A stretch of 64,000 nucleotides of DNA from the IMG/VR virus record IMGVR_UViG_3300024348_000028, positions 1,844 through 65,843 of that record. One strand, written 5' to 3'. The notes under the pieces were generated by a model that saw only the letters and a program-made list of their open reading frames with translations, did no database searches and had not been told where the DNA came from. The stretch is from a virus. Lineage: Duplodnaviria > Caudoviricetes. The translations under genes were made by a program, and so were the position numbers. Of the stretch, positions 3,600 to 30,025 are shown in pieces (position 1 is the first letter of the stretch; each line of letters begins with the position of its first letter).

Positions 3600-6095
3600 T
3601 TAATGAAAGAAATACTCTGCTTCAAGAACAGAAGAAATATTTAAAGATCCAATTGCAGGTGTGCTTGGAAGTTCAACTCCTAATGAATTCTCAATTTCTA
3701 ACTTTAGTTTTTCAAGCAAGGGTTCTTTATGCATAGTATAAAATTCTTCTCTTGTATACTGACGCATCAATGGAACATATGGAGCAGCACACCCATATGA
3801 ATCATGGACAAAACTAAAATTAGTAATACCAGCCGTAAGCATTTTATCCATAGTCATCCACATATGACTTGCATCAAGACTGTGGATATAATTTGGACTT
3901 ACTGCCAAGTTAACTTGAGTATCATCAATCTGACTTGAATCTGTAGAACCAAAATGAAGTTCTTTCATATTGAACAATTTTGCAATTGATCTCCTTGTTA
4001 GAATTTCATAATACTGATGGACAACTTTAAAACCACATGGAGTAGTCCACTCAAGATTCTTACCCATATTGCTTGCTATATCAGCAATTTGCTTTAGCCA
4101 TACCTTACCATAATTTGCATTAGTTAAAGTATTTTTTAAGCACTTGTCAATATAAGTAGCCAGCTCCATAACTGCACCAGCAATACGATCTTTGTTAACC
4201 CAATCTAAATGTCCTTCAGTCTTACAGTATCTTCGAATACCGTAGAATGTAACACCATATGGATCTGTCATAACAGCTCTCTTGCATACTGATCTTGGAA
4301 TTTTGTTATCCCAATGATTTAAAAATAACTGTGCCCAATCCTTCGTATCTGGATCTGCATTGTCATCTTTAGAATCCTTTGACATTGAATTAGTCATAGA
4401 ATCAGCAACAAAACCATATAAATCCTGTGGATCTTTATGTCCAGTAAGATTTACTTTATAAGCAAGATCAACATCACGCATAATAGCAGCCCAATGTTGA
4501 ACACCATTACATGAACCATCAATTTGAATTGGTAGTTGAGTAAAACCATCTGTTCTACAAAGTTCAAAGATTGCAGCTAGTCTTTGAAAACTAGGGTTCT
4601 TTTTCTTTTTGTCACTAACCCAAAACCATCGTGTTTCAAATGGATCTTTTGCAGTATCTTGAATAAGATCAAGATTATCATCAACCCATTTAATACGATC
4701 TGCAAATGGTAACTTATCTTGATCAAACAAATTAGCAAGATGAACCTTTAACCAGTATCTACCGTTTTCAGTTTGCTTTATTGGTTTAGCAAAGTGAATT
4801 AAACTACGATCAAAATCTGAACTCTGTGGTGACAATAAATCACAAGCAGTATAAGCACGACCTCTAAAGTCACAGGTATAGATGTGATAAAAGAAACCCC
4901 ACTTCATCAAATCATTTGCAACCTTAAGCCTCACCAACATACGACCACGGGATCGTTCTTCTTTATACCAAGAAGACCAAGACTCTTCTTTACGCTGACA
5001 CCACTTAGCCTTTTCTTCTTTTGTTCCAGTTTCAGGATAATCCTCACCAAAATCAAAAGCATCAAAGTTATACGCTGGAAGATTAGCTTCCCTTGTATTA
5101 TTGTGGAACATTGCATTCATTACTGCATAGACTTTATAATTAATAGCCCACTCAGTATGCATCAATGCGTTCAATCCACGAACAACCATTTCACTAGGAG
5201 TGGAGTTTTTTTGAACTACAGTCTCATCCCAATGAACATCTCTAAACTTCTGAACAACTGGTTTACGAATCCAAGGCATTAAGTTACCACCAGATGAAGT
5301 AACAGTATGTTCAGCAGGAGGAACAATCATAGGACGATACAATAGACTTGCTCTTGAGATCAAATCCTTGTGTCTATTATGAAGTTCCTGAAGAAGTTCA
5401 TCAGTAAAACTTACAACAACTCTTTCATACCAACGATTACCAATACGCTTTCTAAAGTTTCTGATGATAATGATATTACTCATCTCAGCAATGCGAAGCA
5501 TATGATGACCAAAATCTTCGCGTTGCTTTCTAGTAAATTGCTTTTTGTTGATGCAATTCATTTTACCAGAAAAAGCACGGCATCGCTTAACAGTCCAATT
5601 CTTTTGGTAATGAGACTGCTTTAACCAATCATCTCTAAAATCTTTCTTAGCTGCTTGATATGAAACAATATCAATAGCCATGTTAGAAATCTGATGTGCC
5701 ATATGCTGTGCAGATGGTAAAGGTAGGCTATGAATATCTCCATCCTTACCATCCATTTTACGATCCCAAGTATTTGAGTTAAACCACTCAAGCATTAAAC
5801 ATCGGATAGTAATGTCAGCCATCTTACCAGCACCAACAGCAAACAAAGGATATGCCCAATCAGGAGTCTTACGATTCTTTGAAACCATATCAATCCACTC
5901 TTGATAGAATGGAGTGAGATGAATAACACAACTATCTAATAGACCCTGTTCAGGATATCCTTCGTCAGGCGATCTGTTATACTCTTCCCAATATCTATTG
6001 TTGGAAAGATTTAACATTTCTTCTTCAAGCATTGCTTGATAGTTTTTTCTACTCTCCTGAACTTCTGGCTTTAGTAAATCCCATAACTCAGGCAT
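3600..6095 (-). CDS. T7-like single-subunit DNA-directed RNA polymerase
   Basis: DFRGRAY, motif A IDGSCNGVQH, motif B RSVCKRAVMTDPYG, PNYIHSLDASH, motif C VHDSY; AGGAGG RBS. Confidence 0.97.
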   Translation of the reverse strand: MPELWDLLKPEVQESRKNYQAMLEEEMLNLSNNRYWEEYNRSPDEGYPEQGLLDSCVIHLTPFYQEWIDMVSKNRKTPDWAYPLFAVGAGKMADITIRCLMLEWFNSNTWDRKMDGKDGDIHSLPLPSAQHMAHQISNMAIDIVSYQAAKKDFRDDWLKQSHYQKNWTVKRCRAFSGKMNCINKKQFTRKQREDFGHHMLRIAEMSNIIIIRNFRKRIGNRWYERVVVSFTDELLQELHNRHKDLISRASLLYRPMIVPPAEHTVTSSGGNLMPWIRKPVVQKFRDVHWDETVVQKNSTPSEMVVRGLNALMHTEWAINYKVYAVMNAMFHNNTREANLPAYNFDAFDFGEDYPETGTKEEKAKWCQRKEESWSSWYKEERSRGRMLVRLKVANDLMKWGFFYHIYTCDFRGRAYTACDLLSPQSSDFDRSLIHFAKPIKQTENGRYWLKVHLANLFDQDKLPFADRIKWVDDNLDLIQDTAKDPFETRWFWVSDKKKKNPSFQRLAAIFELCRTDGFTQLPIQIDGSCNGVQHWAAIMRDVDLAYKVNLTGHKDPQDLYGFVADSMTNSMSKDSKDDNADPDTKDWAQLFLNHWDNKIPRSVCKRAVMTDPYGVTFYGIRRYCKTEGHLDWVNKDRIAGAVMELATYIDKCLKNTLTNANYGKVWLKQIADIASNMGKNLEWTTPCGFKVVHQYYEILTRRSIAKLFNMKELHFGSTDSSQIDDTQVNLAVSPNYIHSLDASHMWMTMDKMLTAGITNFSFVHDSYGCAAPYVPLMRQYTREEFYTMHKEPLLEKLKLEIENSLGVELPSTPAIGSLNISSVLEAEYFFH

Positions 6096-8843: not shown

Positions 8844-8848
8844 GTAAA

Positions 8849-9181: not shown

Positions 9182-9184
9182 AAG

Positions 9185-14754: not shown

Positions 14755-14799
14755 TCGGAATCCTTGCCCATTCCGGGCGGTTATAGTAACCCTATGCAC

Positions 14800-15540
14800 C
14801 AGACCATCTGATGCATGGGATTCGATACCCTACCATAGCAGGATACCGAATCCCCCCCGAACGGGTTGCCAAGGATTCCTGATATTCACGCTGTATCTTT
14901 CGGGAACCATGCGGGTGCATGGACTCGGTACTCGACCATCGCTAGAAAAGAGCAGGAATCCACCCATTCGGGGAGGATCGGAAATAGATTGATTAGCCGT
15001 AGAATTGCATGGTAGCGGATTACACCGATACATTACCATGCACGCCCATTTCGGGCGGCCTTGACCGATCCACACACACTAGCGGACCCCCGATCATGCA
15101 GGGACCATTGCGCCTTCCGGGCACTAGTGGCAGAACCTCGGCCAACCATCCAATCGCGTGGATGGAGAAACCGCGTAGGCGATACCCTCGACCTCGCATC
15201 GTGTGCATCACGCAGGGGATAACTGTTACCTTGTTGCCGCCCAACTAGCGCGGAGTCCAACATAGAGTACTGGTTTCACCACCCATGATGCCCTTGCGGG
15301 TCATTAGAGATCGTTGAATGTCGCATTTGCGCCCCACCCCCGCACAACTCGGGGGACACCCCATCATAGCGGATACCCAATTCCCCACTAACCCATTCCG
15401 GGTGTTTGTCGTTATCGGCCCCGTGGGTGTAGGCCGTCCGATAACCTGCACAGGGCCGTGTCCGATAACGCGAGGGGGGCACGGGGGGACGCGCGCGGGG
15501 GATTTAGGGGGATACCCTCTTATAAATTTTTGACCCCTAA
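14800..15540. other. GC-rich non-coding region, probable genome terminus/junction
   Basis: lies between the last late gene/tRNA and the first early gene; sharp GC-to-AT switch near 15520; short repeats and G-runs. Confidence 0.55.
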
Positions 15541-15554
15541 GCCGATTTTCCAAA

Positions 15555-15627
15555 CTCTCCCAGATGGACTTGAACCAACGACCCGAGAGTTAACAGCTCT
15601 CTGCTCTACCGACTGAGCTATAGGAGA
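15555..15627 (-). tRNA. tRNA-Asn(GTT)
   Basis: TCTCCTA/TGGGAGA acceptor, TAGCTCAGTCGGTAGAGC, GAGAG-CTGTTAA-CTCTC. Confidence 0.92.
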
Positions 15628-15783
15628 ATGTACCCCACAGGTATCTGGGGCTACCGTAGGGGATTGTATTATTCAATTTATATCGAAATCGACCGGGATC
15701 ATAGTGTAGTGTTATTTTGTATTGATTACAATGAATCCCCTTAGATCCCTTTCGGGAACTAAAGGTATAAATACAAATATTTT

Positions 15784-15844
15784 AAAAACTATAGAATTCC
15801 CATAGGAGTATCTTAAGGATACCCCTATGGGAAATATCTATAGC
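15784..15844 (-). terminator. long hairpin followed by a T-run after the giant gene (terminator or RNase III site)
   Basis: CTATAGA..TTCCCATAGGGGTATC-CTTAA-GATACTCCTATGGGAA.TCTATAG then TTTTT. Confidence 0.6.
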
Positions 15845-15857
15845 TCCAACTATTTGT

Positions 15858-18800
15858 TTACTGATTATTGGACATGTCTTTCAATAGGTTGGCCAAGTCT
15901 GTAGATACACCTTTATTATTGGTATATGTTATTGGTCTTTGTATTGAATTCTTTCTATCTTGTAAGAACTTGTTGGTTTCTTCTAGGTATCTAGCTCTAT
16001 TATCCTTTAGTTTGTTTTCGATTTCTCTAGACTGAACTGGGACAATATTATGATTACTAGCAACATTCTCAGGTTTATTAATATACTTATTCTTTCCTTT
16101 TTGGATAAGCTTAAGGTATTTATTTAATGAGTTGTTTTCATCAATTACTTCTAGTTCTTGTAATAACCTAGCTGGTACTGCAACTGGGCTTTTATTGAAT
16201 GTAATGTTATAAGGAATAATATCACCGAACTTGGCAATCATTTCTTCCTTAGACATTTCACCACCCTTAGCTAATAATTCCTTACCAGAACCCATTGCCT
16301 TGCTTACATAAGCATTGAGTACACTAAAGGCTGGAGGAGAAACTGGGTTTGAGAATCCCTTGTAGGTTCCTCCAGTTAGTTCTGAGAAGGTAGCTAGCGT
16401 TCCTGAGAATAGGCCGGATAGAGAACCAAAGACTGGGAGTGTACTGGCCATTCTAAATACTGATGTACTTGGGTCTTTTAACTCTTCCTTAATATCTTTA
16501 ACATCTCTGCCATTTAACCAATCTATTATAAGTTCAGACATATATGTTAAAGCTGAGTATAGAATAACTATTTCAGCTAGAACAACTGTTGGTTTCTTTA
16601 GCTGTAGGTTTTCAAGTACACCGCTTTTGAATGATTGTGACCATTGCAATAGCGATCTAATAAATCTACCAATACCAGTTTTAGAGGTAATTGAAATATC
16701 TTTATTTAATCCTCTTGATTCTGAAATTAAACCATCAGTTGAGATCTGTGTTTCAAGTGCGTATACAAAATCACTAAAGGCTTCATCTAATACTTCTTTT
16801 GGAATAGGACCAATGGGGCCAGTCATATAAGCATCTACCTTTGCTTGTAGTGCTGTTAGATTAAAGACTCCATTCTTGTTAGTTCCTGTTTGTTCCATGA
16901 TATACTTTAGTGCCTTTAACTTATCAGCATCTAGTAATCTAAATCTCATAAAAGTTAAAGCATGATCCCAGTTACCACCAAACCCAGCTTCTCTAGCTAG
17001 TTTCTTTTGAAGAGCTGCTAATTGTCTATCTGCCTTTTCTGAAGTAATAGATAATGCTTGTAGTCTTTCTAGTTCTGCTTTATTGGCTGGATTTTCCATT
17101 AATGCCAACAGTCTTAAAGCAGCTCCGCTTACAATATACTTAGCATTTCTTTGTGTAAATCTTCCTAGTGCAAAGTGTTTTGAAATACCAGTAATATACT
17201 TTACTGAACCAACTTCTACACCAAGATTACCTATTGTTTCAAGAGCAGCTGTTAGTTTATTGCTATCTTCTCTTGTCTTAGTCAATCTTTTCCACCAACT
17301 ATCATTTAAAGATGGAACACCTGAAACGGAGTTTGTTTGTAAATATCTATCTTCAATTTCAGAAAGATAACTACGAATTCCGTGTACGGTTAAGAATGCT
17401 TGTTGTTTTAATGCTTCTGATGGTCTTCTATCTAAGAACATCTTAAATACACCAAACGCATTATTTATAGTTTCTTTAATACCAACTTCTGGTAGTGCTG
17501 TAATAACATTGATAAAGGATTCAGCAGTGCTGCGAAGACCCCAACCTTGACCTGATGTTGCTCTTAGAATACCACCAGCAGATCTACTAAGTTGTTCTCC
17601 TGTTTCACCGTATGCAGACATAATGCGGGGATTTCTACCAGCATATTCAGCATAATCTTCAGCTAGTCTTTTCATACCACCTTGAAGATCTTTCTGTAGT
17701 GATTCATTTGATCCAGCCATTCTCATTAGTAGTTTACTGGCTGCATCAAATAGTTCATAGATACGAACACCCTTTACACCAAGCATTCTATCTAGTTCTG
17801 CTTGTACCAATAATTCAAAGCCTCTATGATTAATTAGATTATCATAAGCAGCTAGTGGATTGGTTCTGATAATATCTTTTATTAGAGGACTATTAAATAC
17901 TTCCTTCCAATCAAGATTCTTAACAGCAAATCCTTGATTATCTCCACCCTTACCAAATAATTGTAAGAATGCGTTATCACCCATTTCTGGCTTTTGAATA
18001 TATCTATGGTAATTACCTTCTCTTAATTTAAAGGCTAGTAGTTCTTCCATCATAACTTGAAGAACTGGTTTTGTATTACCAAAGTTAGCCTTCCATTGAT
18101 CTGCAATGTGAGTAGTAACTCCATCTACTGTTTCCATATATCTAGCCAAATCTCTTGGACTTAGATCGTCTACCTTTTCTGGAATAGCGCAGATTACAAT
18201 TTGACCTGTTGCTGGATCTTCATAAGAGAAGAACTTAGTATCAGCTTCTCTTCTAATTTCAGGAATCTTCTTAAGATCAGTACCGGGAGCATATCGTCTA
18301 TTACCAGCCTTAGCCTCTAGTCTTGAAAGAGTATCAGCATCAAAACCAGTCTCTCCAATATGTAGTTGATCTCTACCTTCCTTACCACGGCTTGTTAATG
18401 GGTTTGATTCTGTATCCCATAACCAACCCATAGCAAGCATAATACTACGATCTAATGTTTCATCGTTTCTAATAGTATCTTTTCTTACTCTAACCATTTC
18501 ATCAACGATTTGAGTACGATCATTCTTAGTTACTTTATCACGATCAAATGTTAGTGCAAAGTAGTTTTCAGCTGGAACTGGATTACCAGCGTCATCCTTA
18601 ATACTAATCCATTCAGTAGAATTTTCTAGATCTAGGATGAACTTATTTCTACGAATTGTTTCATCTCTTAGATTCTTTGCTGAAGTAAAGACAGCATCAA
18701 TGTATGCTGGTTGAGCAGATGAGTTAATAGCAAGAACTGCTGTTTGAATATCTGCTCTTTGTAGTGGTCGTTTAGTTGATACTAAAGATTTAACAATTTC

Positions 18801-21800
18801 TAGTTCAACTGCTTGCATTACTCGTAGATCTCCTGTTTGAATAGCAAGATCTCTGTTTAATGTAATCAAAGCTCTCTTTGATCTTTGAACCTGATTAGCA
18901 ACGCCTTCCCAAGTTTTAAATGCGTGTGTACCAGACTTTACTAACTGGTGTGTCATTACTTTTCCGTTTTCTGCCATTGAAGAAAGCCATCGTAGTAGGT
19001 TGTTCATACTACGAAGAGTTTTGCCTTCACCAGTAGCAAATGAGGTAAGACCAGACATCCAACTTAGTGTTTTTCTAAATGCGTTTCTATTTGTCTTTTC
19101 AGATCCTCTAAACAAACTAGCAATCCAGTTAGTAGATCTAAATACTTCTGTATGCTCTGTTGCTAGGTTATTTAAGAAGTTAATTAAGATACCTTGTGTT
19201 GGTGGTAGCTTTTCTGGTTCTATATCAATTAGTACACCTAAACCTAAATCTCTTTTAGCGGATTCAATATCTACTTTTACTTTTGCTCCAGCATAAGTTT
19301 GTGCTGCATAACTACCCTTTTTCATTCTAACTTTATCAGGATAGTTTAGTGTAATGTTATCTGCACTAAATACAAAGTCATGTGGAGATGGTGGTCTAGT
19401 AAATTCTGGTAAATCTGTGCCATATCTTGCGTTATAAGACGCAATAGCTTGATCAGTCTTTGCTTTTGCAAAGTCTAGAATTTGATCCATAGTCTTTACT
19501 GAGATTTGTTCAGTTGGAGTACTTCTTGCATCTAGTTCTTTTGCAATTTCAATATCATAGTATGACCAGAAAATATTATTAATTGTTTCAAATCTAGTAC
19601 CAAACTTTTCTTGATTAATATTAGAAATTGTTGAATAGATGTTATATACTTTATCTAAGAAGTGTAAGAATTGATCTGGAATTGTTTCGATCTTCTTACC
19701 AAGATTTTCTCTTAATCCAGAAGTAATTCTATGGAAGTTAAGTAGTAGAATCTTAACAAACTTAGGATCTGTTCCAGAGTTTCTAAGTAAAGATTCTCCA
19801 GCCATCATCTGAGCATCAAACTTATCTACATCATTAAGAACAACTGTTTCAGCTTTTCCTGCTTTAATCTTTGGATCAGTAGCTGGTGTTCTACCAGTCT
19901 TTGGGTCCATATCAACAGGAAGTTTTTCTGGATTAACTACTGGCTTATCTATAATAACTTTTGGATCGTCAGCTACAGGAGGTTCTGTTGGTTTTCTTAT
20001 TACTGGTAGTCTACTAGTTGTATCAAGCGTTGTTTCTTTCTTAACTACACCTTCTTTAGTTGGAACAACAGCTACAGTTTTTTCTTTTTTCATAAAGCTA
20101 ACTAAATCAATATTTTGTTCTTTTAAAATATCAATTAGTGTTGTTTCTGGTGTTTCAGATTCTTTTACAATAGAAATTAAAATATCTTTTTCTAAACCAA
20201 AATCAGAAAATCGTTCTTCTGGTGTTGCTTCTAAAGCAGAGATAATATCTGGTTTATCTAAAACTAAAGTTAATGTTCTAGTAGTACTTTTAACCTTTGT
20301 TGTACTTACAAAAATTGGTTCAGTTTTATCTGCTGATACAGTTACTTTATCTTCTGGTAATAGTACAGAACCACCTTTAATTGAATCATCTTTAGTTTCA
20401 CCAGAAACAAACATAACAGTTTCTCCAACTTCAGTTTTAACTTCTGGCATTGCTACTGGAAGTTCAGTTGTTTGTTTTGAAACAGCGGCTTCAATATTAG
20501 TTCTAATTTTTCTAGATGCTTCTAGTTTTGCTCTAGCTTCTTCTAATGAAACAACCTTTGGTTTTTCTTCACCACTAAGAATAGCATCAGACTTTTTGGC
20601 AATTATTGCTTTTGCTGTTTCTGTAATATTTTCAGTTAAAGATGTTGGTCTTACTTCGTCATTAACAAGTTTAATTTCCCCATCAATTTGCTGTACTTGT
20701 TTTCTTAAAGCAGCCTTAGCATTCATTACTTGTTTATCAGTAATTCCAAGTAGTTTTGCAATACCCTTATCAGTTATTTCTGGATTATTTTGTTTAGCAA
20801 TTAGATACTTAGAAACTATATCCTTTACACTTGGAGATAGTGTTGTTTGTGTAACAATAGAAAGAACATTTTCTGCTTGTTCTTTAGAAATTGGTTTACT
20901 ACTTTCAACCGCTATTCTTGCATCAGGAATATCAATCTCTTTTCCATCTTCTCTAACAAGACCATAAGAAACTTTTTGTGCTTTGCGCTTTTGTTTTACC
21001 GCAGCTTCTTTTGCTACATTATTAGCAAAACCAAAAGCATAATTAAACTTTTCTTTTTCTGTAGTCATCTGAGACAAGGCAGCATTAACCTTATCTCTAT
21101 TCATAAGAATTTTTTCAATGACTTTTTGTACTAGGTCTTCTACAGATTCTGTTTTAATACCACTCCAGTTATCTTTTAAATACTTTCTAATACTAGCACC
21201 AAGTTTTGTTTTTGCTGTTACTTTTAGACCGGATACTCCAGCTTCTCTTTCTTTTTTAGTAGATACTGTTTTAGTTACAACCTCTCCAATCATAGTTACA
21301 AAGGTATCAGCATCTTTAATTTGACCGATGTCTTCTGTTATGTATGTATCAGGAATTTTAACTTCTTCTTGTTTTTCTGGAATCTTTGCCATAAGTTTTT
21401 CACGAAGAGCGTTAAACTTTGTTTCTTGATTAGCAACAAGCTTAGGGTTTCCTTCTCTAACTATAACTGTACCGCGAGAAACAATCTTTCCATCTTTACG
21501 AACAACTGGAGCAATAGTTTTTACTATATATGGTTCTTCGCTTGCTTGACCTTCAACATATGGTTCAAACATAAGTACTTCAACTTCACTTTGTCCATCA
21601 AGATAAGGTTTACCAGTTAAGTCATCAATATATTCTCCTTCTTTAAGAGAAGCCTTAACTTGTTCCATTTGTGACTTAAATTTTTTTGGTTTCTCTGGTA
21701 CTTCTACAACCTTTTCAACTAGCTTTCTTTCTTTCTTAATCTTCTTTTTCTTTTCATCAACAAGAAGACCAGATAGTGCTTTAGCAAATCCATCAATATC

Positions 21801-24800
21801 TGGATTTTCTTTTGCTGCGTTTAATAGCTGTGCTTCAAATGCTTTATCTGTTTCAAGACGCTGGAAAACTGGTTGTAGGCTAAATACCTTACCTACTTCT
21901 GTGTCTTTCATGTAAGTTTCTAGTAAATACTTAATAATACTATTTTCGGTAGTTGTGTCTAATAAAGCATTTATAAGAGTATCAAAATCTTTAATACCAT
22001 GTGGTTGGTTTGGGTTTCTAGATAATTTGGTTACTATTATATTATCATTAAATACAAATTCTCTTGCAAATCTTTCTTCAATACCGGATAGAATTAAGTT
22101 TTCTGTGCTTTGATATAACTTGTGATCAATAGTAATTCCAGTATACTCTGCAATATTATTTAATACATCCTCAAAGAAAGTAAACTGAGTTAGGTATTGT
22201 CCAGCTATAGTTTGTGTTGTTTCGTATGCTTTATCTACAAAGAAACTACCAATTTTATTTTGTAAAACTTCAGTAGCTTCTTTATCGTTTTTAATTCGTT
22301 TTAAAAAGTCTACAATACTATTAACATTCCTATACATTTCAGCCATAGTAATGTTTTCTTCAAACAAAGATGGTAAAACAAAGGCAATAGATTTTGCTTT
22401 ATATCTATCTGAAAGATCGGATAATTCTATAAAGTTTTTTATAAAGTCTGATGTGTCGTTTGTAGTGAGTTTTTCTCCTGTTGGAACAAACATTTTATAG
22501 TAATTTGCTTGTAATAGTTCTTGTACTTTATCTGGAATTAACCAATAAGATAATGCTAGTAAGTTTGTATAATAATCATCTTTATATGTAATAACATCTT
22601 TTATTAAATCTTTAATATCAGAGTCTACAAAATTACTTAAGCTTTCTACCTGTTCTCTACTTAATGTACCATCGTATAATCTTGTTAATAACTTTCGTTG
22701 TACTTCTCTTACACTAGTAGCATCTAAAGTTGTTTCTGCAATTATATCAGCAAGTAATTTAGATGGTTTATCAACCGATGCTTTTTCCATTAAAGTTTCA
22801 AAAATAGAATCTATATAACTAGTGTAAGAAATACCATCAAAAGTTTTTCCAAGATTTTGTGCTAATCTTGTTTGAACTTGGAATGAGTGTAATCCTAAAG
22901 AAGCTGCATTAGTAACAGTTCTATAATCAATTTCATCAGCTGTTTCAATTAAACCATTAATAATATTATCTAGATCATTAAATTCTGATTTTCTTATAAT
23001 ATTAGATAGTTTACCCCATACATCTTTAATAAACTTAAAGAATGGACTCATTACTCTTGTAAGTAAGCTTTGGTTTTCTAGTTTAGAAATAGCCTCAACT
23101 GATTTAGAGTATACAAGGCTTTCAAACATATTAGCAAAAAATTCTGCTACATTTCCAAAAGAATAAACAAAATTACCGTTTAAATTTCCCTTTTCAAATA
23201 CTGCGTTATCAAGATCAGTAAAGAATCTTACTAAATCAAAATCTACATAATCTGAGTATGCTTTATATAATTCTATTTGTTGATCAATATCTAATACGAA
23301 TGAGTAGATATGACCCAATTCGTGTAAAGCAACTTTAGTTATTAGATGTGCTGTTTGGTTTGGTGTTAAAGAACCAGCTTCAGCTCCTTTTAATATTTCA
23401 TTAACAAATACAGAAAAACCAAATTTAACTTCTCTTACACCAGCATCCTGTAGTGCTTCACCATAGACACCACTTTCACCAATTCTTTCTAAATAAGTTA
23501 CTAGTTTAGTTGGATTTAGTTTTAGATTAGCAATAGCAGAAGCAATTAACTTTACTGTTTTTTCTTTAAGTTCTTTTGCAGCTTTAATATCAGTATGTGG
23601 GAAACTATTATCAAAATATTTTTGTAATACTTTTTCAAAATAATTTATAAGCTTTTCATGTTCTGGTGAAATTTTCTTAGCAAAAGAAATATCTGTAAAT
23701 GCTTTTTGTGCTTTCTTTGTTTGAGCAGCATTTAATGATCTTGGTTTAGTCTTTCGATTAGCAAGAATAGCATTTTCTTTTTGCTTTAGTTTTCTAACTA
23801 ATGGAGAATCTGTGTCTTTAACCTTTAGTGTTTCAGTTGGTTTTTCTTTACCAAAAAGATATTCACTTAATGCTTTTCTAAACTTTCTATTAAGATTCTT
23901 TTCTTCGTTAATACGACGATCAAAATCTTCTCTTGAAACATCTTTATATTTTTCAGCTAGTTCTAAGAATTGAGTTTTCTTTTCATTGCTTAAAGTAGAG
24001 AAGCCTTTGTTTTCTTTTCCAATTAGATCTCGTTCTAGTTTTTGTAAATCAGCAATGTGTCGATTTAAGTTTATTTCTTGATCTGTAAACCAAGTAGAGT
24101 CTTTGGCTGTTCTTCCACTTTCTTTTAATTGCTTAAGAACATCTAAAGATCTTGTTGCAAGTTCTTTTATTTTTCTAATCTTCAAATAAGGTTTTGGTTC
24201 AGCTTGAATAGTTTTAATATCTTCAGCTGTTGCTACAACTCTTAACCAATCCTTTTCATCTTTTATTTGATTAGCATCAATAGATCTCTTACCGTAATCT
24301 AAAGTACTTTCTCCAGTAACCTTATTAAAGATTGGAGACTCTGGAGCAGAACCCAGCTTACCTGCTCTACCGTCTTCTTTAATTGTAGCAGAGTCAGCTG
24401 CTTTTTCAGCATCGCTAGCAATTCGTTCTAGTCTAGTAGGAGCTTCCCCAGTAACTGGAGGTAATCCTTCTACCTCAACAGCTCTAATCTTAGCTTCATC
24501 TAAACTTAGTTTTGGTATTTCATAGATACCATCTTCTCTTCTAATATATACATTTTCAATAGTGTTTTGTTTTGCTGTTTCATCTATCTTTCTAATTTCG
24601 TCTTCTCTAAACTTATACTTAGTACCTTCAATATCAAGGTCTATTGTTCTAACGCCTTCTACTGCTGGTACGGCTGTAATTGGATCTACTTTAGTTTCTT
24701 CAACAGCTAATGTAGCAGTTTCAATGATAGCATCTTTTGTAAGTGGGGTTGGGCTGGTAACAACAGCATCAGTTCCTTCTGGTGTTTCTAAACGAGCAAC

Positions 24801-26486
24801 GCCAGTTTCATCTGTTTTCTTAAATAGTTTATTCTTTAATTTACCAAGTCCCTGAGTTGCGCCGTATAAACTTGTTCCAAATAGGAAACCTACAGTACCA
24901 GCAATAGCTAATTCTTTTTTAGAATACTCAAATTCATGGTCTGTTTGAAGACCAGTCATTGACATAGCTATTCTTGTTGTTTGGTCCTTTGCGCTTGCAA
25001 TTGTATTTAATACAGCACCGGAACCACCGATATAACTAAGTCTTTTTAAATGACCCATCTTTTGCATAAAGCTTGGTAGTTCACCTGTTGCAAAGGCGGT
25101 ACTAATACTAAGTCCCTTTTGTATAGTCTGTAATGATTTTTGTAATCTAATTGCTTTATTAGTATAACCAGCTGCCTTTAGTGCTGCAAGTCCACCCTTT
25201 GCTGCTGTTCCAAAACCAGCAGTAGCTACTGTGGCTGCAATACCAATTCCAAGGTCTGGATCGTTAATTGCTGTAGTAAAGAAATCGGCAGCAAAACCAA
25301 TAACATCACCAGCAAAGTTATCAAATAATATACTATCTTTTTGGTATGCTTCTACTTTTTCTTTAAGAGTTGATTTAAATACCTTATCCTGTAATATAAA
25401 TAAAGCATGATCCTTATTGTTTGTTCCAATAAAATCAATACCATCAACACCCTTTTTTGATAAAGTTTCTTTTACTTCTTTTGGTAGATTAAGTTGATTA
25501 AACCACTTTGCTCCATCAAAGTTTGGATCTTTTTTATCAATAAGCGTTTTAAGATCGTCCGCAATTGATCCAACTCCCTGTTCAAAAATATCAAAGCCGC
25601 TGTTATATTTTGCTAAAGATAATTGAATTGCTGATTGTTTAGCATATTCATCGTCTAAGTTATTTTTATATAGTGGGTTGTCAAATGCGGTATCAACCAA
25701 AGCACCAACAAGAGCGTTACCAGATAGATAACCACCTTCAGCTTGTGTAGATAACATCCATCTACTAATTGAACCAGCATCTATAAATGCTTTGTTTCTT
25801 TCCTTAAACTGCTCTAGTGTCATTGGTTCTGGTACTACATGTGATGGAATTTCTTTACCATCATACTTAATATCTACACCACCACTAGATGACCATGCTA
25901 GCTTGCCTTCTGCTGTTTTTGGAACACCTTCTTCATAGTAAGCAACTGGTTCATTATCATTACCAAGATTTACTTTAACAGCTTGCTTTGCTGCTTTAAT
26001 TTGATTTAAATAATCATTATAATCCTTTTCAACCTGATCCATGTTTTCAATTAATGGATTTTGAATCTTGAAATAAGGACCACTCCAATAGCCTCTCTTT
26101 GCTCTCTCTAAAGCAAATCTATCTACATCTCTGCCCAAGAAACCAGAACCAGCTCCTCCAGTTAATAAATAGTTTGCTTTTCTAAATTCCCAAAAATCAT
26201 CATTGTTTGGTTTTTTAGTTGACCAATTTTCCTTTGAACTAATAGCCTGTAGATTAGTATCAGGCATTACACCATAACGCTCTGCTTCAGCTCCTTCTAG
26301 TGTATTAAAAGTAAATGGGGCTGTTAAGGTTTGCCAGTTATTAAAGAAAGATCTACCAAACATTACTGGAGCAGTTGCTGTAAAGTAAAGTTCTGGTAGT
26401 TCTTGTTCTGGTTTATAGTTAACACTTGGACCTAGTTGAAAATTAAAATTATTTAAACCATCAATGTTGATTTTTTCTGTACTCAT
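15858..26486 (-). CDS. giant (3542 aa) internal virion/ejectosome-like polyvalent protein with zincin HExxH and ECF sigma-like domain
   Basis: last and largest of the internal-virion-like cluster; hydrophobic Gly/Ala segments near both ends; HELGH...EFFA; EDLVQKV...IAKLLGIT. Confidence 0.75.
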   Translation of the reverse strand: MSTEKINIDGLNNFNFQLGPSVNYKPEQELPELYFTATAPVMFGRSFFNNWQTLTAPFTFNTLEGAEAERYGVMPDTNLQAISSKENWSTKKPNNDDFWEFRKANYLLTGGAGSGFLGRDVDRFALERAKRGYWSGPYFKIQNPLIENMDQVEKDYNDYLNQIKAAKQAVKVNLGNDNEPVAYYEEGVPKTAEGKLAWSSSGGVDIKYDGKEIPSHVVPEPMTLEQFKERNKAFIDAGSISRWMLSTQAEGGYLSGNALVGALVDTAFDNPLYKNNLDDEYAKQSAIQLSLAKYNSGFDIFEQGVGSIADDLKTLIDKKDPNFDGAKWFNQLNLPKEVKETLSKKGVDGIDFIGTNNKDHALFILQDKVFKSTLKEKVEAYQKDSILFDNFAGDVIGFAADFFTTAINDPDLGIGIAATVATAGFGTAAKGGLAALKAAGYTNKAIRLQKSLQTIQKGLSISTAFATGELPSFMQKMGHLKRLSYIGGSGAVLNTIASAKDQTTRIAMSMTGLQTDHEFEYSKKELAIAGTVGFLFGTSLYGATQGLGKLKNKLFKKTDETGVARLETPEGTDAVVTSPTPLTKDAIIETATLAVEETKVDPITAVPAVEGVRTIDLDIEGTKYKFREDEIRKIDETAKQNTIENVYIRREDGIYEIPKLSLDEAKIRAVEVEGLPPVTGEAPTRLERIASDAEKAADSATIKEDGRAGKLGSAPESPIFNKVTGESTLDYGKRSIDANQIKDEKDWLRVVATAEDIKTIQAEPKPYLKIRKIKELATRSLDVLKQLKESGRTAKDSTWFTDQEINLNRHIADLQKLERDLIGKENKGFSTLSNEKKTQFLELAEKYKDVSREDFDRRINEEKNLNRKFRKALSEYLFGKEKPTETLKVKDTDSPLVRKLKQKENAILANRKTKPRSLNAAQTKKAQKAFTDISFAKKISPEHEKLINYFEKVLQKYFDNSFPHTDIKAAKELKEKTVKLIASAIANLKLNPTKLVTYLERIGESGVYGEALQDAGVREVKFGFSVFVNEILKGAEAGSLTPNQTAHLITKVALHELGHIYSFVLDIDQQIELYKAYSDYVDFDLVRFFTDLDNAVFEKGNLNGNFVYSFGNVAEFFANMFESLVYSKSVEAISKLENQSLLTRVMSPFFKFIKDVWGKLSNIIRKSEFNDLDNIINGLIETADEIDYRTVTNAASLGLHSFQVQTRLAQNLGKTFDGISYTSYIDSIFETLMEKASVDKPSKLLADIIAETTLDATSVREVQRKLLTRLYDGTLSREQVESLSNFVDSDIKDLIKDVITYKDDYYTNLLALSYWLIPDKVQELLQANYYKMFVPTGEKLTTNDTSDFIKNFIELSDLSDRYKAKSIAFVLPSLFEENITMAEMYRNVNSIVDFLKRIKNDKEATEVLQNKIGSFFVDKAYETTQTIAGQYLTQFTFFEDVLNNIAEYTGITIDHKLYQSTENLILSGIEERFAREFVFNDNIIVTKLSRNPNQPHGIKDFDTLINALLDTTTENSIIKYLLETYMKDTEVGKVFSLQPVFQRLETDKAFEAQLLNAAKENPDIDGFAKALSGLLVDEKKKKIKKERKLVEKVVEVPEKPKKFKSQMEQVKASLKEGEYIDDLTGKPYLDGQSEVEVLMFEPYVEGQASEEPYIVKTIAPVVRKDGKIVSRGTVIVREGNPKLVANQETKFNALREKLMAKIPEKQEEVKIPDTYITEDIGQIKDADTFVTMIGEVVTKTVSTKKEREAGVSGLKVTAKTKLGASIRKYLKDNWSGIKTESVEDLVQKVIEKILMNRDKVNAALSQMTTEKEKFNYAFGFANNVAKEAAVKQKRKAQKVSYGLVREDGKEIDIPDARIAVESSKPISKEQAENVLSIVTQTTLSPSVKDIVSKYLIAKQNNPEITDKGIAKLLGITDKQVMNAKAALRKQVQQIDGEIKLVNDEVRPTSLTENITETAKAIIAKKSDAILSGEEKPKVVSLEEARAKLEASRKIRTNIEAAVSKQTTELPVAMPEVKTEVGETVMFVSGETKDDSIKGGSVLLPEDKVTVSADKTEPIFVSTTKVKSTTRTLTLVLDKPDIISALEATPEERFSDFGLEKDILISIVKESETPETTLIDILKEQNIDLVSFMKKEKTVAVVPTKEGVVKKETTLDTTSRLPVIRKPTEPPVADDPKVIIDKPVVNPEKLPVDMDPKTGRTPATDPKIKAGKAETVVLNDVDKFDAQMMAGESLLRNSGTDPKFVKILLLNFHRITSGLRENLGKKIETIPDQFLHFLDKVYNIYSTISNINQEKFGTRFETINNIFWSYYDIEIAKELDARSTPTEQISVKTMDQILDFAKAKTDQAIASYNARYGTDLPEFTRPPSPHDFVFSADNITLNYPDKVRMKKGSYAAQTYAGAKVKVDIESAKRDLGLGVLIDIEPEKLPPTQGILINFLNNLATEHTEVFRSTNWIASLFRGSEKTNRNAFRKTLSWMSGLTSFATGEGKTLRSMNNLLRWLSSMAENGKVMTHQLVKSGTHAFKTWEGVANQVQRSKRALITLNRDLAIQTGDLRVMQAVELEIVKSLVSTKRPLQRADIQTAVLAINSSAQPAYIDAVFTSAKNLRDETIRRNKFILDLENSTEWISIKDDAGNPVPAENYFALTFDRDKVTKNDRTQIVDEMVRVRKDTIRNDETLDRSIMLAMGWLWDTESNPLTSRGKEGRDQLHIGETGFDADTLSRLEAKAGNRRYAPGTDLKKIPEIRREADTKFFSYEDPATGQIVICAIPEKVDDLSPRDLARYMETVDGVTTHIADQWKANFGNTKPVLQVMMEELLAFKLREGNYHRYIQKPEMGDNAFLQLFGKGGDNQGFAVKNLDWKEVFNSPLIKDIIRTNPLAAYDNLINHRGFELLVQAELDRMLGVKGVRIYELFDAASKLLMRMAGSNESLQKDLQGGMKRLAEDYAEYAGRNPRIMSAYGETGEQLSRSAGGILRATSGQGWGLRSTAESFINVITALPEVGIKETINNAFGVFKMFLDRRPSEALKQQAFLTVHGIRSYLSEIEDRYLQTNSVSGVPSLNDSWWKRLTKTREDSNKLTAALETIGNLGVEVGSVKYITGISKHFALGRFTQRNAKYIVSGAALRLLALMENPANKAELERLQALSITSEKADRQLAALQKKLAREAGFGGNWDHALTFMRFRLLDADKLKALKYIMEQTGTNKNGVFNLTALQAKVDAYMTGPIGPIPKEVLDEAFSDFVYALETQISTDGLISESRGLNKDISITSKTGIGRFIRSLLQWSQSFKSGVLENLQLKKPTVVLAEIVILYSALTYMSELIIDWLNGRDVKDIKEELKDPSTSVFRMASTLPVFGSLSGLFSGTLATFSELTGGTYKGFSNPVSPPAFSVLNAYVSKAMGSGKELLAKGGEMSKEEMIAKFGDIIPYNITFNKSPVAVPARLLQELEVIDENNSLNKYLKLIQKGKNKYINKPENVASNHNIVPVQSREIENKLKDNRARYLEETNKFLQDRKNSIQRPITYTNNKGVSTDLANLLKDMSNNQ

Positions 26487-26527: not shown

Positions 26528-29500
26528 TTATTTAGACCAAAGATCAGCTTCAGCTTTTCTTCGTCTTGCTAAACCTTTTGATTTTTTACCACCAGTCTTA
26601 TTATAAAGTAATAATGCTGTTGGTACATCTTTAAAATTATCTACTGAAGATACGGCTTTAGTTAATGTTTCAAAACCTTTACGACCATAGAAATTTTGAC
26701 CGTTCTTCATATTATAAGCAAATGAAATTAATGCTGCTTGTTGATTAGGATTCATTTCATTCCAAGTTGGAATTGTCTCAGACAATCTAGGAATAATCTT
26801 AGTATCTACAAAATCTTGCATTAGATTATCTGCTTCTTCTTTAGAAATTTTATCTCCCTTTTTAACTGGAGTTCCATTTCTATAAGTAGTTGTGCCTTTA
26901 CCTATTGTCCATACTTTTCCGGTATCATCCCAATAAGCTTCTGTCTTCATTCCTTCAAACTCAGAGATTAAATTAATATATGGTTTTTCACCAACAGAAC
27001 CGGGAGATGTTTCTTTCTGTGTTTTTTCTCCAGTAAAGAAATCTCTAATCATTCCAATTGCTCCACCATACTTGAAATTAGGATCACTAGTAAATGTTTG
27101 TTCTTTTACTACTGGTACTTTTTCCCAAGATAGTGTATCATAGTTCCATTCCATCTTTGTTTGTGGAGTGGTTTCTTGTTTTTTTATCTCTGCTTGTTCA
27201 ATAGCCTGTGCCATTAACTTGGTTGGTGTAATTGTAATTCTATCTTGAATACCTTTTAAGATATCGTTATTACTAGAATCTATTGGTGGTAAATTTGGAA
27301 CGTTTGTTTGTGCGTTATTTAAAAACTGTTTTGTAGATAGAGTTACATCTGCTAAAGTAACAATAAATTGTTTTCCTTTTGCTTTTTCAAATAACGCAGC
27401 AGATGTTTCATCTGTTAATAGGGCTGAATATAATTCAACAGCTTGTTGCTGATTTAACCCCATATTTTGTTGTGCGTTCTTGACCAAGAAAGGCATCTCG
27501 GATTGTAATGCCATTCTAAATTCTGCAATTGTATCCATACTAGAATCTTGACCAACAAAAATAGAATCTTTACTAGTATTTCTATTTGGTGTTTTTAATA
27601 AACTATCTTTAATTTCACCAACTAATTCATCTTTAGTTTTTGGTGCAACAAAGTAATCAATCTGATTCTGTACAGTTTTTGGACTAGTTGTTAGTTTAAT
27701 CTGATTTGGGTTTGTTCCACTTTGTAGACTATTTGCCCATACATTAAAATCAGAAGCAGGACCATAAATATCTATTGCTCCGCTTTCGTCTTTAATATCA
27801 GAAAAGAATGACATAGACTGTCCATTTACTGGGTTAATAAATGAACGCCCATTTTTCATTTCAATTGGTATTACTGTTGAGTCTGTTAATAGCTCTCCTA
27901 CTCCATCTTTATTATATAGTGGAATGCTTGTTAAAACCATATCTACTCTGGCTTCACCCATAGTTTTATTTCTATAGGCTCCTTTTGATTCAGATAGGTT
28001 TGGAGTCCAGCCCCATTGATCTGCTGTTGGAATTGCTTCCATAGCGGCATAAAAAGATCTTTGAATTTCTTCTTCGGTTTGTGGTCTTACTCCACCATTA
28101 AACTTAGTCAATACTTGGTCGCTAGATGCAAAAGCAAGCTTATAAATAGTTGCCTTATTTGGACCAGCGTCATAAGTTTGACCAGTACTTGGATTAGTTC
28201 TTTCAATACGAATTGTAGACACTAATCGCTGTAGTTTGTCTACTGGGAATAAGGTTCTTTGTTGAAAAAATGATTCGTCAATACTACTAGCAATAACTCC
28301 TGTATAGCCACTAACATCACCTTCTAAATTAGTCATTGCTAGTTGAGAAGCATAACCAAGTTTCAATTCCCCAGTTGAGCCATCATTTAAAGATTCTTTT
28401 ATTGACTTTGGTAATAGTTGGTTTTGTTTTAATTGCTGTAAAGTTCTTTTTGTTGGCTCTGGTCTAAAAATAGAATTTGGAGATACTAAGCCAGTACGAG
28501 TAAATCTTGGATTATTGTTTGCATCTACACCTTTGATTGTATAGGTAGATGGTGTTAATAAAGAAGATACAATAATATTTTGAGATACTTTTTCTCGCTC
28601 ATCCTTGTTTAACTCTTGGTCTGGTGTAATATAAAAAGATAAACCAGACATATAGGCTTCTCTAATATCTCTATTTTCTCTTAGAGTTTGGTTTAAATTA
28701 TCTTGTGTAATATTTAATCCAGATGTTTTTAATTGATCAATAAAGAAGGATGAATATGAGTTTTCTAATGAAGTATACTTACTACCAATACCACTAACAC
28801 CAGCCTGTTGACTTAATGATGTTCGTGTTGACATTGCTTTTGTTAGTGCACCCATTGTTTCTAGGTTTGTTTTACTAACAAGTTGTAATACTTCACCACT
28901 TGATTTATTTGTATTTCTTGAAAGATATCTAATAATTCTAAGTCTATTCATTCCCTCTTCAGAAATATTACTATCTTGAGTTTGCATATACTCAAAAGAT
29001 TCGTCACTAATTTGTGGAGCAATGTGATAAAACATATCAAATGTTTTTGGATTTTCTGTTCCTAAAGAAGGAGCTGAAGCTAGAGCAGTAGCAAGTCTTT
29101 TAAATTGATCTGGTACTTGAATACCTGCTTGCGGGTAATATTCTTGAACATATTGTGCATATTGTTGTTTTCTAATATCTTCAGGAAGTTCCATAAATCT
29201 ATTATTATCAACTAATGTAATTCCAGTATTTGGGTCTTGCTGAATAATTAAACTTTTATCTTGAAGTAAATCTGCTTGTTCTTTTGGCAATAGGATTTGT
29301 TTTAATCCCGGTTCATTTTGATCTACTACTTGATTGTATTTCTTTTGTGCATCTGTTGGTTGAATTTTACCAAGCTTGCCGTTATTAAAAGCATTTGCTA
29401 GATTCATTTGTTCATTCATAGTTAGCAAAGCATCTCTTTGAACTCTTTCTCCTGCTTCTGCTAATGACTTATAACCTCTTCTGGCGTTATCAATTACATC

Positions 29501-30025
29501 AAACCACCTACTACCAAAACCATCATACTTAAATGATTCATTTGATTTATAGTTTCCATTTGCATCTTTAACAAATAAAGGATTTTCAAATTCAAATACA
29601 CTATTTATTTTTTCGGCAGCTTCATTTTGTTGCTTATAAAAACCATCTTGTATATTGTTTATGCCGTTTACTGCATCATCTGATGCAAAGTCAGAAGGCA
29701 GTCCTTGTTGCTTTTTGTTTGAGTATGAGTCATATACTTTAGTTTCTGCATCATAAATAATATCAGAAATTTCAGCACCCTTTTTTTGAATATTATATTC
29801 TAATACTCTTGGAAGGATATTACCAGCTACCTCAAATGCTTTTGCTCCAACACCATACCAATCAAAAGCACTAGTATCAATACCACCAATCATTTCTCTT
29901 GGAGCGGCCATAGATACTTCACCTTCTTTTACAAAGGTAGCTCCTGCAATTTGTTCCTGAACTTTTGGTGCTTGTATATTTACTTGGTCTGGATTAATTA
30001 TAAAATTATTTGGTGTTGGGGGCAT
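26528..30025 (-). CDS. internal virion protein with C-terminal GH24 lysozyme domain
   Basis: FEG...AYWDDTGKVWTIGKG, NQQAALISFAYN, GLARRRKAE at the C-terminus. Confidence 0.85.
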   Translation of the reverse strand: MPPTPNNFIINPDQVNIQAPKVQEQIAGATFVKEGEVSMAAPREMIGGIDTSAFDWYGVGAKAFEVAGNILPRVLEYNIQKKGAEISDIIYDAETKVYDSYSNKKQQGLPSDFASDDAVNGINNIQDGFYKQQNEAAEKINSVFEFENPLFVKDANGNYKSNESFKYDGFGSRWFDVIDNARRGYKSLAEAGERVQRDALLTMNEQMNLANAFNNGKLGKIQPTDAQKKYNQVVDQNEPGLKQILLPKEQADLLQDKSLIIQQDPNTGITLVDNNRFMELPEDIRKQQYAQYVQEYYPQAGIQVPDQFKRLATALASAPSLGTENPKTFDMFYHIAPQISDESFEYMQTQDSNISEEGMNRLRIIRYLSRNTNKSSGEVLQLVSKTNLETMGALTKAMSTRTSLSQQAGVSGIGSKYTSLENSYSSFFIDQLKTSGLNITQDNLNQTLRENRDIREAYMSGLSFYITPDQELNKDEREKVSQNIIVSSLLTPSTYTIKGVDANNNPRFTRTGLVSPNSIFRPEPTKRTLQQLKQNQLLPKSIKESLNDGSTGELKLGYASQLAMTNLEGDVSGYTGVIASSIDESFFQQRTLFPVDKLQRLVSTIRIERTNPSTGQTYDAGPNKATIYKLAFASSDQVLTKFNGGVRPQTEEEIQRSFYAAMEAIPTADQWGWTPNLSESKGAYRNKTMGEARVDMVLTSIPLYNKDGVGELLTDSTVIPIEMKNGRSFINPVNGQSMSFFSDIKDESGAIDIYGPASDFNVWANSLQSGTNPNQIKLTTSPKTVQNQIDYFVAPKTKDELVGEIKDSLLKTPNRNTSKDSIFVGQDSSMDTIAEFRMALQSEMPFLVKNAQQNMGLNQQQAVELYSALLTDETSAALFEKAKGKQFIVTLADVTLSTKQFLNNAQTNVPNLPPIDSSNNDILKGIQDRITITPTKLMAQAIEQAEIKKQETTPQTKMEWNYDTLSWEKVPVVKEQTFTSDPNFKYGGAIGMIRDFFTGEKTQKETSPGSVGEKPYINLISEFEGMKTEAYWDDTGKVWTIGKGTTTYRNGTPVKKGDKISKEEADNLMQDFVDTKIIPRLSETIPTWNEMNPNQQAALISFAYNMKNGQNFYGRKGFETLTKAVSSVDNFKDVPTALLLYNKTGGKKSKGLARRRKAEADLWSK

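Follow-up and report, generated by a model that had tools for sequence, protein, structure and literature searches.

The 64,000-nucleotide window analysed here, bases 1844–65843 of the 65,843-bp IMG/VR virus record IMGVR_UViG_3300024348_000028 (estimated completeness 98%), contains a giant open reading frame (ORF), P0001, that encodes a protein of 3,542 amino acids (aa). In the middle of this protein, residues ~1759–1948 very probably form a highly diverged module derived from the extracytoplasmic function (ECF, or group IV) sigma factors. The best explanation of our results is that the module has become fixed mid-protein within a small clade of uncultured T7-like phages, and a giant phage protein of the polyvalent type with an ECF-sigma-derived module is a new domain architecture. 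A more far-reaching proposal is that this late protein is carried in the virion and that its diverged ECF-type module engages the core RNA polymerase (RNAP) of the host at the onset of infection; we place this proposal as a whole slightly below an even chance.

The carrier gene and the parts of the module, the last of which is a helix-turn-helix (HTH) domain, are located as follows.

15858..26486, minus strand: giant ORF P0001, the carrier of the module (ATG start, 3,542 aa; from the ORF list and its translation)
20967..21212, minus strand: sigma2-like domain, aa 1759–1840; four helices, with the motifs EDLVQ and F..F.NN.A....KQKRK
20886..20966, minus strand: inter-domain linker, aa 1841–1867 (~30 residues); KVSYGLV..EG..IDI.DA, largely invariant in four homologues
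20643..20885, minus strand: sigma4-like HTH domain, aa 1868–1948; L..VKD....Y..AK.NNP...D..IA.LLG.T.K...NAKAAL.KQ

The sequence strings on which the original prediction of a sigma factor was based are found exactly in P0001, with IRKYL starting at residue 1766 and AALRKQV ending at residue 1931 (window 20694–21191, within the predicted 20680–21210). On the plus strand, the frame at this position contains stops throughout.

A sigma-like module in the middle of a giant protein

A word-indexed homologue search of 5.8 billion proteins, with residues 1700–2000 as the query, returned four clusters.

P0001, own cluster: 3,542 aa, 100% identity over the segment
P0002: 3,469 aa, 80% identity over the segment
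P0003: 3,393 aa, 52% identity over the segment
P0004: 2,662 aa, encoded on an 8.6-kb metagenome contig, 44% identity over the segment

P0004 is probably truncated at its N terminus, because its alignment starts at P0001 residue 985. Residues 1759–1948 were aligned across the four proteins (alignment A1). The original prediction proposed conservation in homologous giant proteins as a check, and the module is indeed present in every full-length homologue found: the segment is kept in all four full-length or near-full-length proteins, with a mean column identity of 74%. Invariant positions include ten columns of the linker (K80, V81, S82, G84, V86, G90, I93, D94, D97 and A98 of A1), the KQKRK motif, NAKAAL in the putative recognition helix and the DGEIKL.NDE.RPT motif with which the sigma4-like domain ends. 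A scan of viral contigs added two further contigs only, a 98% relative (L002) and one closely resembling P0002 (L003/L004). Against L003, the ratio of non-synonymous to synonymous substitution rates (dN/dS) of the module is 0.26 in this one sequence pair, which corresponds to purifying selection; for the parts of the module the same single pair gives 0.17 (sigma2-like), 0.49 (linker) and 0.26 (sigma4-like).

The evidence for sigma ancestry comes from profile comparison and from predicted structure. The ECF profile was built from 33 proteins, namely Escherichia coli RpoE and FecI together with 31 ECF-sized open frames with PF04542 matches, and has a median pairwise identity of 21%; the best 120 homologues listed for E. 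coli RpoE are orthologues of at least 86% identity and were unfit for a diverse profile. Aligned to this profile with hhalign, A1 scored 45.9 (probability 93.0%, P = 3.3e-7) over 132 colinear columns. The alignment runs from A1 column 21 to 176 and from ECF column 44 to 179 of 182, passing through regions 2.1–2.4, the linker and regions 4.1–4.2. Reversed A1 scored 13.7 (0.4%), 40 column shuffles reached a mean of 12.1 and a maximum of 15.8, and 40 shuffles of ten-column blocks a mean of 19.5 and a maximum of 25.8; none of the 80 shuffles attained a probability of 50%. Profiles of other HTH families were also matched poorly by A1 (30-member TetR profile: 0.3%, score 14.8; 28-member LuxR/GerE profile: 1.7%, score 20.8). 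The ECF and LuxR/GerE profiles matched each other at 94.1% (score 54.2), so hhalign does detect the known kinship between sigma4 and LuxR.

At the level of residues, 33 aligned ECF columns have a consensus of at least 50%; A1 has the identical residue in 11 of them and a residue of the same class in 23. Retained in A1 are the D of regions 2.1–2.2 (85% in ECF; invariant), the neighbouring consensus Q (97% in ECF; Q/Q/N/N in the four homologues), the N of region 2.4 (67% in ECF; invariant) and the I-A...L core of the sigma4 HTH. Among protein language-model neighbours, the nearest ESM Atlas clusters consist of hypothetical proteins of 163–209 aa (score 0.96–0.97), and in some of these 10–23% of the members carry Sigma70_r2, r4_2 or GerE, with 10–20% for the two sigma families.

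The AlphaFold2 (AF2) model of A1 begins with four helices and ends with four to five further ones, joined by a linker of low confidence in which there is a small hairpin. Its mean predicted local distance difference test (pLDDT) score is 72.2, with values of 57–76 in the sigma2-like half and 76–89 in the sigma4-like half and a low stretch at model residues 75–82. In model numbering, the sigma2-like helices span residues 2–15, 24–37, 39–47 and 52–79, and the sigma4-like helices residues 110–120, 127–142, 148–155 and 159–186. Foldseek found nothing in the PDB at E ≤ 0.001; ECF sigma entries fill nine of its first ten rows, led by the RpoE of 5uxx (E 0.06), with 176–192 columns aligned and all at E ≥ 0.06. 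An unbiased search of 48,161 PDB representatives with VIA-align, made without Foldseek, placed the sigma2 domain of Bartonella RpoE at the top (5uxx_C; Z 7.9, 2.3 Å over 73 residues, 19% identity, model residues 1–82). Behind it came ShbA (Z 7.3), sigmaE region 2 (4lup and 2mao, Z 6.7–7.2; for 4lup, Z 7.2 and 2.4 Å over 70 residues) and SigK (6.6). Judged by their titles, 20 of the best 50 rows are sigma factors or sigma-like domains and seven more are chains of transcription-initiation complexes. The structural comparison proposed in the original prediction thus returned ECF sigma2 domains as the best match, and the first half of the module is predicted to have the sigma2 fold, at Z below 8 and pLDDT 57–76.

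The module therefore resembles ECF sigma factors such as E. coli sigmaE (RpoE) and Bartonella RpoE (5uxx) in its ~190-residue sigma2–linker–sigma4 order, in its colinear 93% profile match and in its sigma2 fold. It differs from them in lying below every curated hidden Markov model (HMM) threshold, in the replacement of several consensus residues and in its unusually conserved linker. ECF sigmas are moreover free-standing subunits of ~20–25 kDa, whereas the module, at residues 1759–1948, is embedded in a protein of 3,542 residues.

Several results weigh against a sigma-derived module acting on the host polymerase. The Pfam families Sigma70_r2 (PF04542), r4 (PF04545) and r4_2 (PF08281), two of which the original prediction had named as a check, gave no match even at E ≤ 10 on P0001, on aa 1733–1965 or on any of the four A1 members. 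In a six-frame search of the genome at E ≤ 10, PF04542 had no match, and the same search was positive in 11 of 14 control genomes. Among 177,635 PDB sequences, the A1 profile returned no sigma factor at E ≤ 10, only noise at E 0.3–0.4 (RFC4, HemS). Searched exhaustively by hmmsearch with the same profile, 1.84 billion representatives gave three matches, P0002 and two HTH-repeat proteins (P0005 and P0006), with no sigma factor and no stand-alone relative of the module among them. The comparison that did find ECF sigmas joins a shallow alignment (four sequences; effective number of sequences 1.6) to a profile drawn from E. coli and five gammaproteobacterial genomes only, and each half of A1 taken separately matches marginally (N-terminal, sigma2-like half: 49.7%, score 27.4; C-terminal, sigma4-like half against ECF columns 129–179: 64.8%, score 29.8). 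Several consensus residues are replaced in A1: the region-2.2 E (70% in ECF) by K/K/S/N, the region-2.3 W (85%) by Y/Y/I/I, an F (59%) by K/R and a sigma4 R (79%) by N. All VIA-align Z values are below 8 and are of a size common for helical models, with unrelated helical domains close behind the sigma factors (Set2 SRI, Z 6.6; a phage connector protein, 6.5). The module is flanked by more than 1,500 residues on each side, unlike any known sigma factor. Finally, the phage carries a separate RNAP gene of its own, the product of which is at most 30% identical to any RNAP in 50,697 deposited phage records.

Scans of the whole of P0001, the segment and eight sub-segments with Pfam and PHROGs were likewise without any sigma, RNAP or internal-virion-protein family. 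Because the Pfam, PHROG, PDB-sequence and HMMER searches are all negative, the segment is not recognisable as a sigma factor by ordinary family criteria. Of the original claim that order and spacing match a complete group IV sigma factor, the colinear sigma2–linker–sigma4 arrangement stands, at the level of remote homology and with a predicted fold in agreement; a match to a curated family HMM does not accompany it. Could a helical, charged segment resemble sigma factors by chance? The negative HMM searches, the structural Z values common for helical models and the four-sequence alignment would all fit such an explanation. We nevertheless judge it very unlikely, as the hhalign score of 45.9 lies far beyond those of the 80 shuffles and the reversed control, and as two independent half-matches stand in the correct order and at the correct spacing. 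It is these weak half-matches, together with the specificity for ECF over other HTH families, the strong enrichment of sigma factors at the top of the unbiased 48,161-chain search and the sigma-annotated clusters among the language-model neighbours, that make sigma ancestry very probable.

A different explanation is suggested by P0005 and P0006, in which generic HTH repeats match A1 columns ~118–163 in six and four stretches, respectively. The module could be a DNA-binding or structural helical element, of sigma ancestry or convergent, that makes no contact with RNAP and, for example, binds the DNA end in the capsid or during ejection, or serves as a spacer in a core protein. The region is basic (K+R 0.18 for aa 1751–2000, with the invariant KQKRK), and no family HMM speaks for a sigma factor. 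The sigma2-like half, however, is not a fold that binds duplex DNA, and it is the better conserved half (dN/dS 0.17), and the profile match is specific to ECF over LuxR/GerE and TetR. We regard a module without RNAP contact as rather unlikely.

The carrier protein and its place in the genome

The family of the giant protein is small, as concluded from the few relatives that searches returned. In addition to the proteins and contigs given above, a search with the C-terminal 1,143 aa gave two further fragments only, a scan of metagenome contigs with the A1 profile gave no match, and tblastn of the first 3,000 aa against the 50,697 phage records gave none either. BLAST divides the protein into two conserved blocks, P0001 residues 1–1613 and 1694–3542, with a variable cassette between them. 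No Pfam or PHROG family matches the whole of P0001, and PHROGs return nothing at all for it. A polymerase of the N4 or crAss type within the giant protein was considered and rejected: P0001 has no Pfam or PHROG RNAP match and lacks the D.DGD motif.

Two further elements of the carrier lie upstream of the module.

23103..23351, minus strand: zincin-like metallopeptidase motifs, aa 1046–1128 (HELGH at 1055–1059, AEFFANMFE at 1114–1122)
21408..21764, minus strand: variable cassette, ~aa 1575–1693 (BLAST blocks break at P0001 1574/1700)

HELGH is the only HExxH motif in P0001; it is followed 55 residues further on by AEFFANMFE, and both are invariant in five homologues (alignment A2). Pfam gives the segment only a sub-threshold match to ATLF (PF07737, the anthrax-lethal-factor zincin family; E 0.24), and the AF2 model, at pLDDT 48, is unusable for claims about the fold, so that the embedded zincin-like peptidase is put forward at the level of motifs. 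The cassette differs between relatives. In P0004 its place is taken by ~260 unrelated residues that contain an ADP-ribosyltransferase (ART) domain, ART-PolyVal (PF18760, E 3.8e-17, residues 620–823), abutting the sigma-like segment. Pfam detects neither ART-PolyVal nor any other enzyme domain beside the module in P0001, P0002 or P0003.

With its size, its multidomain composition, its late-gene position, its zincin motifs and the ART of one homologue, the carrier looks like a polyvalent protein. Phage polyvalent proteins are giant, multidomain proteins encoded near late genes that are probably packaged and injected, and they are often processed by embedded zincin peptidases, according to the main text of Iyer et al. 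2017 (PMC5512222). In the comparison with that class, the points of likeness are a very large multidomain protein beside virion genes, the HExxH motif, ART-PolyVal in P0004 and LPD23, a polyvalent-associated domain present on 18% of the members of an ESM Atlas cluster neighbouring the carrier. No polyvalent-domain HMM passed in P0001 itself.

All recognised genes in the window are on the minus strand, and the surroundings of the giant gene, in transcription order, are these.

Minus strand, first block: PurZ-like gene, dehydrogenase, DNA polymerase I, dNMP kinase, exonuclease, dUTPase-like gene, ribonucleotide reductase
Minus strand, next block: portal, T7-type scaffold, Gp10A-like capsid, tail tubular A and B, fibre genes
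Minus strand, after the fibre genes and before the 1,165-aa protein: terminase large subunit
26528..30025, minus strand: 1,165-aa protein, candidate ejection or core protein (Pfam Phage_lysozyme, 2.6e-22, at C-terminal residues 1022–1159; PHROG endolysin families)
3600..6095, minus strand: phage single-subunit (T7-type) RNAP, 831 aa (PHROG 414, E 9.2e-144), separated from the giant gene by the early region and lying ~10 kb downstream of it

The T7-type RNAP, tail tubular A and B, Gp10A-like capsid, T7 scaffold, portal and terminase bear out the T7-like phage type assumed in the original prediction. By gene content and sequence divergence, then, the phage is T7-like and distant from cultured phages; its tail tube B is at most 25% identical to any in the 50,697 deposited records. 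In the orientation of T7, the giant gene is the final late gene ahead of the early leader. In a related contig of 64,012 bp, each of the two ends carries part of the giant gene, with overlapping residues (L003/L004), and the junction from the giant gene to the early leader is contiguous in three assemblies. The assemblies thus behave as circles or as terminally redundant genomes.

The giant ORF comes directly after its 1,165-aa, lysozyme-bearing neighbour in transcription order, and these two are the sole large late proteins without an assigned structural role. From this neighbourhood, the late-gene position and the polyvalent hallmarks we infer that the giant protein is packaged and ejected with the DNA. 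The internal core and ejection proteins of T7 are gp14, gp15 and gp16. The two proteins described here resemble them as large late proteins of a T7-like genome, one of them with a peptidoglycan hydrolase domain. They differ in their position, after the terminase gene and not between tail tube B and the fibre gene, and P0001 has no detectable homology to gp14–gp16 (no PHROG match); the giant protein is ~2.7 times the size of gp16.

Possible roles at the host RNA polymerase

In the reading that we put forward, the giant protein would most likely travel in the virion among the internal or ejection proteins, and its module would encounter host core RNAP when infection begins and the DNA is entering. 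The sigma2-like part would dock on the β′ clamp helices, and the sigma4-like part on the flap and on DNA. Once there, the module could serve in one of two ways: transcription might start at the leading, early end of the genome with the module as a ready-made initiation factor, or the module might tether host RNAP beside the entering DNA and the other effector domains of the protein. Release of the module by the embedded zincin-like domain is conjecture.

The contact with the clamp helices was modelled by co-folding, which the original prediction had named as a check. The sigma2-like part (A1 1–90) and residues 235–335 of RPOC_ECOLI gave a score of 0.34 (0.34, 0.35 and 0.34 in three runs), classed as 'weak support', compared with 0.00 for all three controls. 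Each partner had a pLDDT of 65 or more, and the contacts were the same between runs for 89% or more. In the calibration of the method, 58 of 80 solved complexes and 2 of 110 mismatched pairs attained the mark. Only seven of the 80 solved complexes, but both of the passing mismatches, did so with scores of up to 0.60, and a pass at so low a level is wrong in the majority of cases if the interaction was not already likely. Moreover, complexes of sigma2 with the clamp have already been solved and were possibly remembered by the model, so that the pass may reflect likeness alone. The outcome is thus a weak pass only, with E. coli as a stand-in that may not be the host of the phage. This nudge makes engagement of core RNAP by the module an evenly balanced prospect, and no better than that.

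Engagement would not by itself make the module a true promoter-specific initiation factor, which has a smaller chance still, well under one half. No cognate promoter was identified, and sites of the sigma70 type are not enriched in the early region (24, versus 28.7 ± 4.8 in shuffles). A more specific version of our reading is unlikely: an ejected giant core protein would bring in a ready-made ECF-type sigma module, and host core RNAP, captured where the DNA enters, would begin transcription at the leading end of the genome. The ejection machinery would then be coupled to the first transcription and possibly also to the internalisation of the genome. Through the same docking, the variable cassette (in one relative an ADP-ribosyltransferase) would act on the polymerase and modify it.

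The position of that transferase also bears on the idea that the module is an adaptor and not an initiation factor, docking the giant protein, or a processed fragment of it, on host RNAP for the benefit of neighbouring effectors, or holding RNAP at the entry port. In P0004, ART-PolyVal immediately precedes the module, at a place occupied in P0001 by an unrelated cassette. According to the main text of PMC5512222, the packaged ART of T4, Alt, ADP-ribosylates host RNAP, and the virion RNAP module of N4 is accompanied by ART and MPTase domains. The weak co-fold pass on the E. coli clamp helices would equally suit an adaptor. Yet both domains and the putative recognition helix with its invariant NAKAAL have been kept, seemingly beyond the needs of a pure core anchor, and P0001, P0002 and P0003 have no recognisable enzyme adjoining the module. 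An adaptor role is quite unlikely in our view.

The structural matches raise another possibility, a sigma mimic or decoy comparable to PhyR, which would titrate a host anti-sigma factor or block the sigma-binding surface of core RNAP and so silence or re-route host transcription before the phage RNAP is made. The top match, 5uxx, is an ECF sigma bound to its anti-sigma, and the sigma-like domains of PhyR, an anti-anti-sigma factor, are among the matches (3t0y, Z 5.6; 2lfw, Z 5.8). Like the module, the PhyR domain is a degenerate ECF-like pair, there serving protein–protein interaction. The lost ECF residues (E to K/S/N, W to Y/I) are what a non-initiating mimic might show, and the phage has its own RNAP. 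On the other side, Pfam recognises no receiver or other regulatory domain beside the module and no PhyR_sigma-like match in A1 at E ≤ 10, the context is viral, and there is no pointer to any particular host anti-sigma. We give the decoy a low probability.

Three ways are known in which phages gain control of transcription: a complete polymerase is injected (N4), enzymes are injected that modify the host polymerase (T4 Alt), or phage-encoded sigma factors are produced once the DNA is inside the cell. If our reading is right, a sigma-type module within a virion-delivered protein would be a fourth route, with a specificity subunit in place ahead of all phage gene expression, and polyvalent proteins would gain a domain for transcription initiation. 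In the more specific version, the module would parallel, on a sigma basis, the RNA polymerase that phage N4 injects. The N4 virion RNAP, gp50, is similarly a giant phage protein of ~3,500 aa with its transcription module mid-protein (main text of PMC5512222); in the present case, zincin-like motifs, the ART of one homologue and the lysozyme-bearing neighbour accompany the module. Unlike gp50, the giant protein described here has no polymerase domain, and its sigma-like module would need the catalytic core of the host; the phage, too, is T7-like and encodes its RNAP as a separate 831-aa gene.

Stand-alone phage sigmas share with the module the supply, by the phage, of a specificity factor for host core RNAP, and chains of phage initiation complexes are among its weaker structural matches (7s01_A, Z 6.6; 7d7d_F, 5.8; 9m7y_F, 5.8). 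T4 gp55 and phiEco32 gp36 are factors of this sort. Such factors are small separate proteins made after infection for middle and late genes, whereas the module resides in a late-expressed giant protein and could for that reason act late in the ongoing infection or in the one that follows, but not earlier. In the available text of a survey of jumbo phages, group 2 sigma factors and T4 gp33 appear as stand-alone genes only (PMC7824862). The word 'sigma' is absent from the main text of PMC5512222, its supplements apart, and searches of open-access full text returned no description of a sigma-like domain in a virion or polyvalent protein; the original statement that no T7-like phage is described as doing this agrees with these searches. 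Should the module bind RNAP, sigma factors could diverge below all family HMM thresholds and still keep their architecture. Members of this clade are uncultured and only distantly related to known phages (RNAP ≤30% identical to those of cultured phages), which makes the lineage worth isolating.

Early region and further elements of the genome

The early region that follows the giant ORF is ORF-poor, ~8 kb long, and contains six tRNAs and a Pistol ribozyme. An inverted repeat is located right behind the giant gene.

15773..15857: inverted repeat I1, 40-nt arms, directly after the stop codon of the giant gene and followed by a conserved non-coding leader and tRNA-Asn

The ~300 nt after the stop codon (window 15560–15857, minus strand) thus consist of a hairpin with 40-nt arms and an AT-rich leader ahead of tRNA-Asn. 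They are near-invariant across the window, L002 and L003, whose giant proteins differ by 2–13%, and are a candidate regulatory or terminal region.

Beyond it lies a GC-rich non-coding stretch in an otherwise AT-rich phage (window ~14760–15550, minus strand; GC 0.44 for 12–16 kb, 0.30–0.39 elsewhere). It contains four same-strand copies of CCGRAATGGG and repeated GGTATCC. Conservation of the stretch extends to L002 and, in part, to L003; stems are preserved and loops differ, as in CCCGAAAGGG versus CCCTGTCGGG. Rfam at gathering thresholds gives nothing in this stretch, which is probably a large structured RNA. The clustered CCGRAATGGG motifs were considered as a bipartite promoter and set aside; they rather resemble small hairpins of structured RNA.

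The Pistol self-cleaving ribozyme (window 12857–12931, minus strand) is a full-length match to the Rfam model RF02679, at 59.5 bits against a gathering threshold of 34.5. The six tRNA genes lie at window 7738–9257 and 15554–15628, on the minus strand, and are Glu-TTC, Leu-TAA, Arg-TCT, Ile-TAT, Lys-TTT and Asn-GTT. Between early ORFs, a hairpin element of ~35 nt is repeated at 12672–12706, 13698–13732, 13953–13986 and 15817–15839 (coding strand GGTATCCATAGG...CTTATGGATATC); two of the copies score as terminator-like. A perfect sigma70 consensus promoter is present at window 8074–8102 on the minus strand, with TTGACA, a 17-nt spacing, TATAAT and the TG of an extended −10, upstream of small early ORFs and tRNAs.

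Two observations concern genes elsewhere in the window. The portal gene is contained in two overlapping ORFs (window 51867–53451, minus strand), of which 52789–53451 corresponds to positions 3–220 of PHROG 449 and 51867–52844 to positions 236–517; the split reflects either a frameshift or an assembly error. The PurZ-like gene (window 62807–63910, minus strand) matches PHROG 1211, '2-aminooxy adenylosuccinate synthetase', at E 1e-66, and its neighbours, down to 55611, are the dehydrogenase, DNA polymerase I, dNMP kinase, exonuclease, dUTPase-like and ribonucleotide reductase genes. We take a PurZ-like gene to be linked to the replacement of adenine by 2-aminoadenine (Z-genome), and the genome of this phage may be of that kind.

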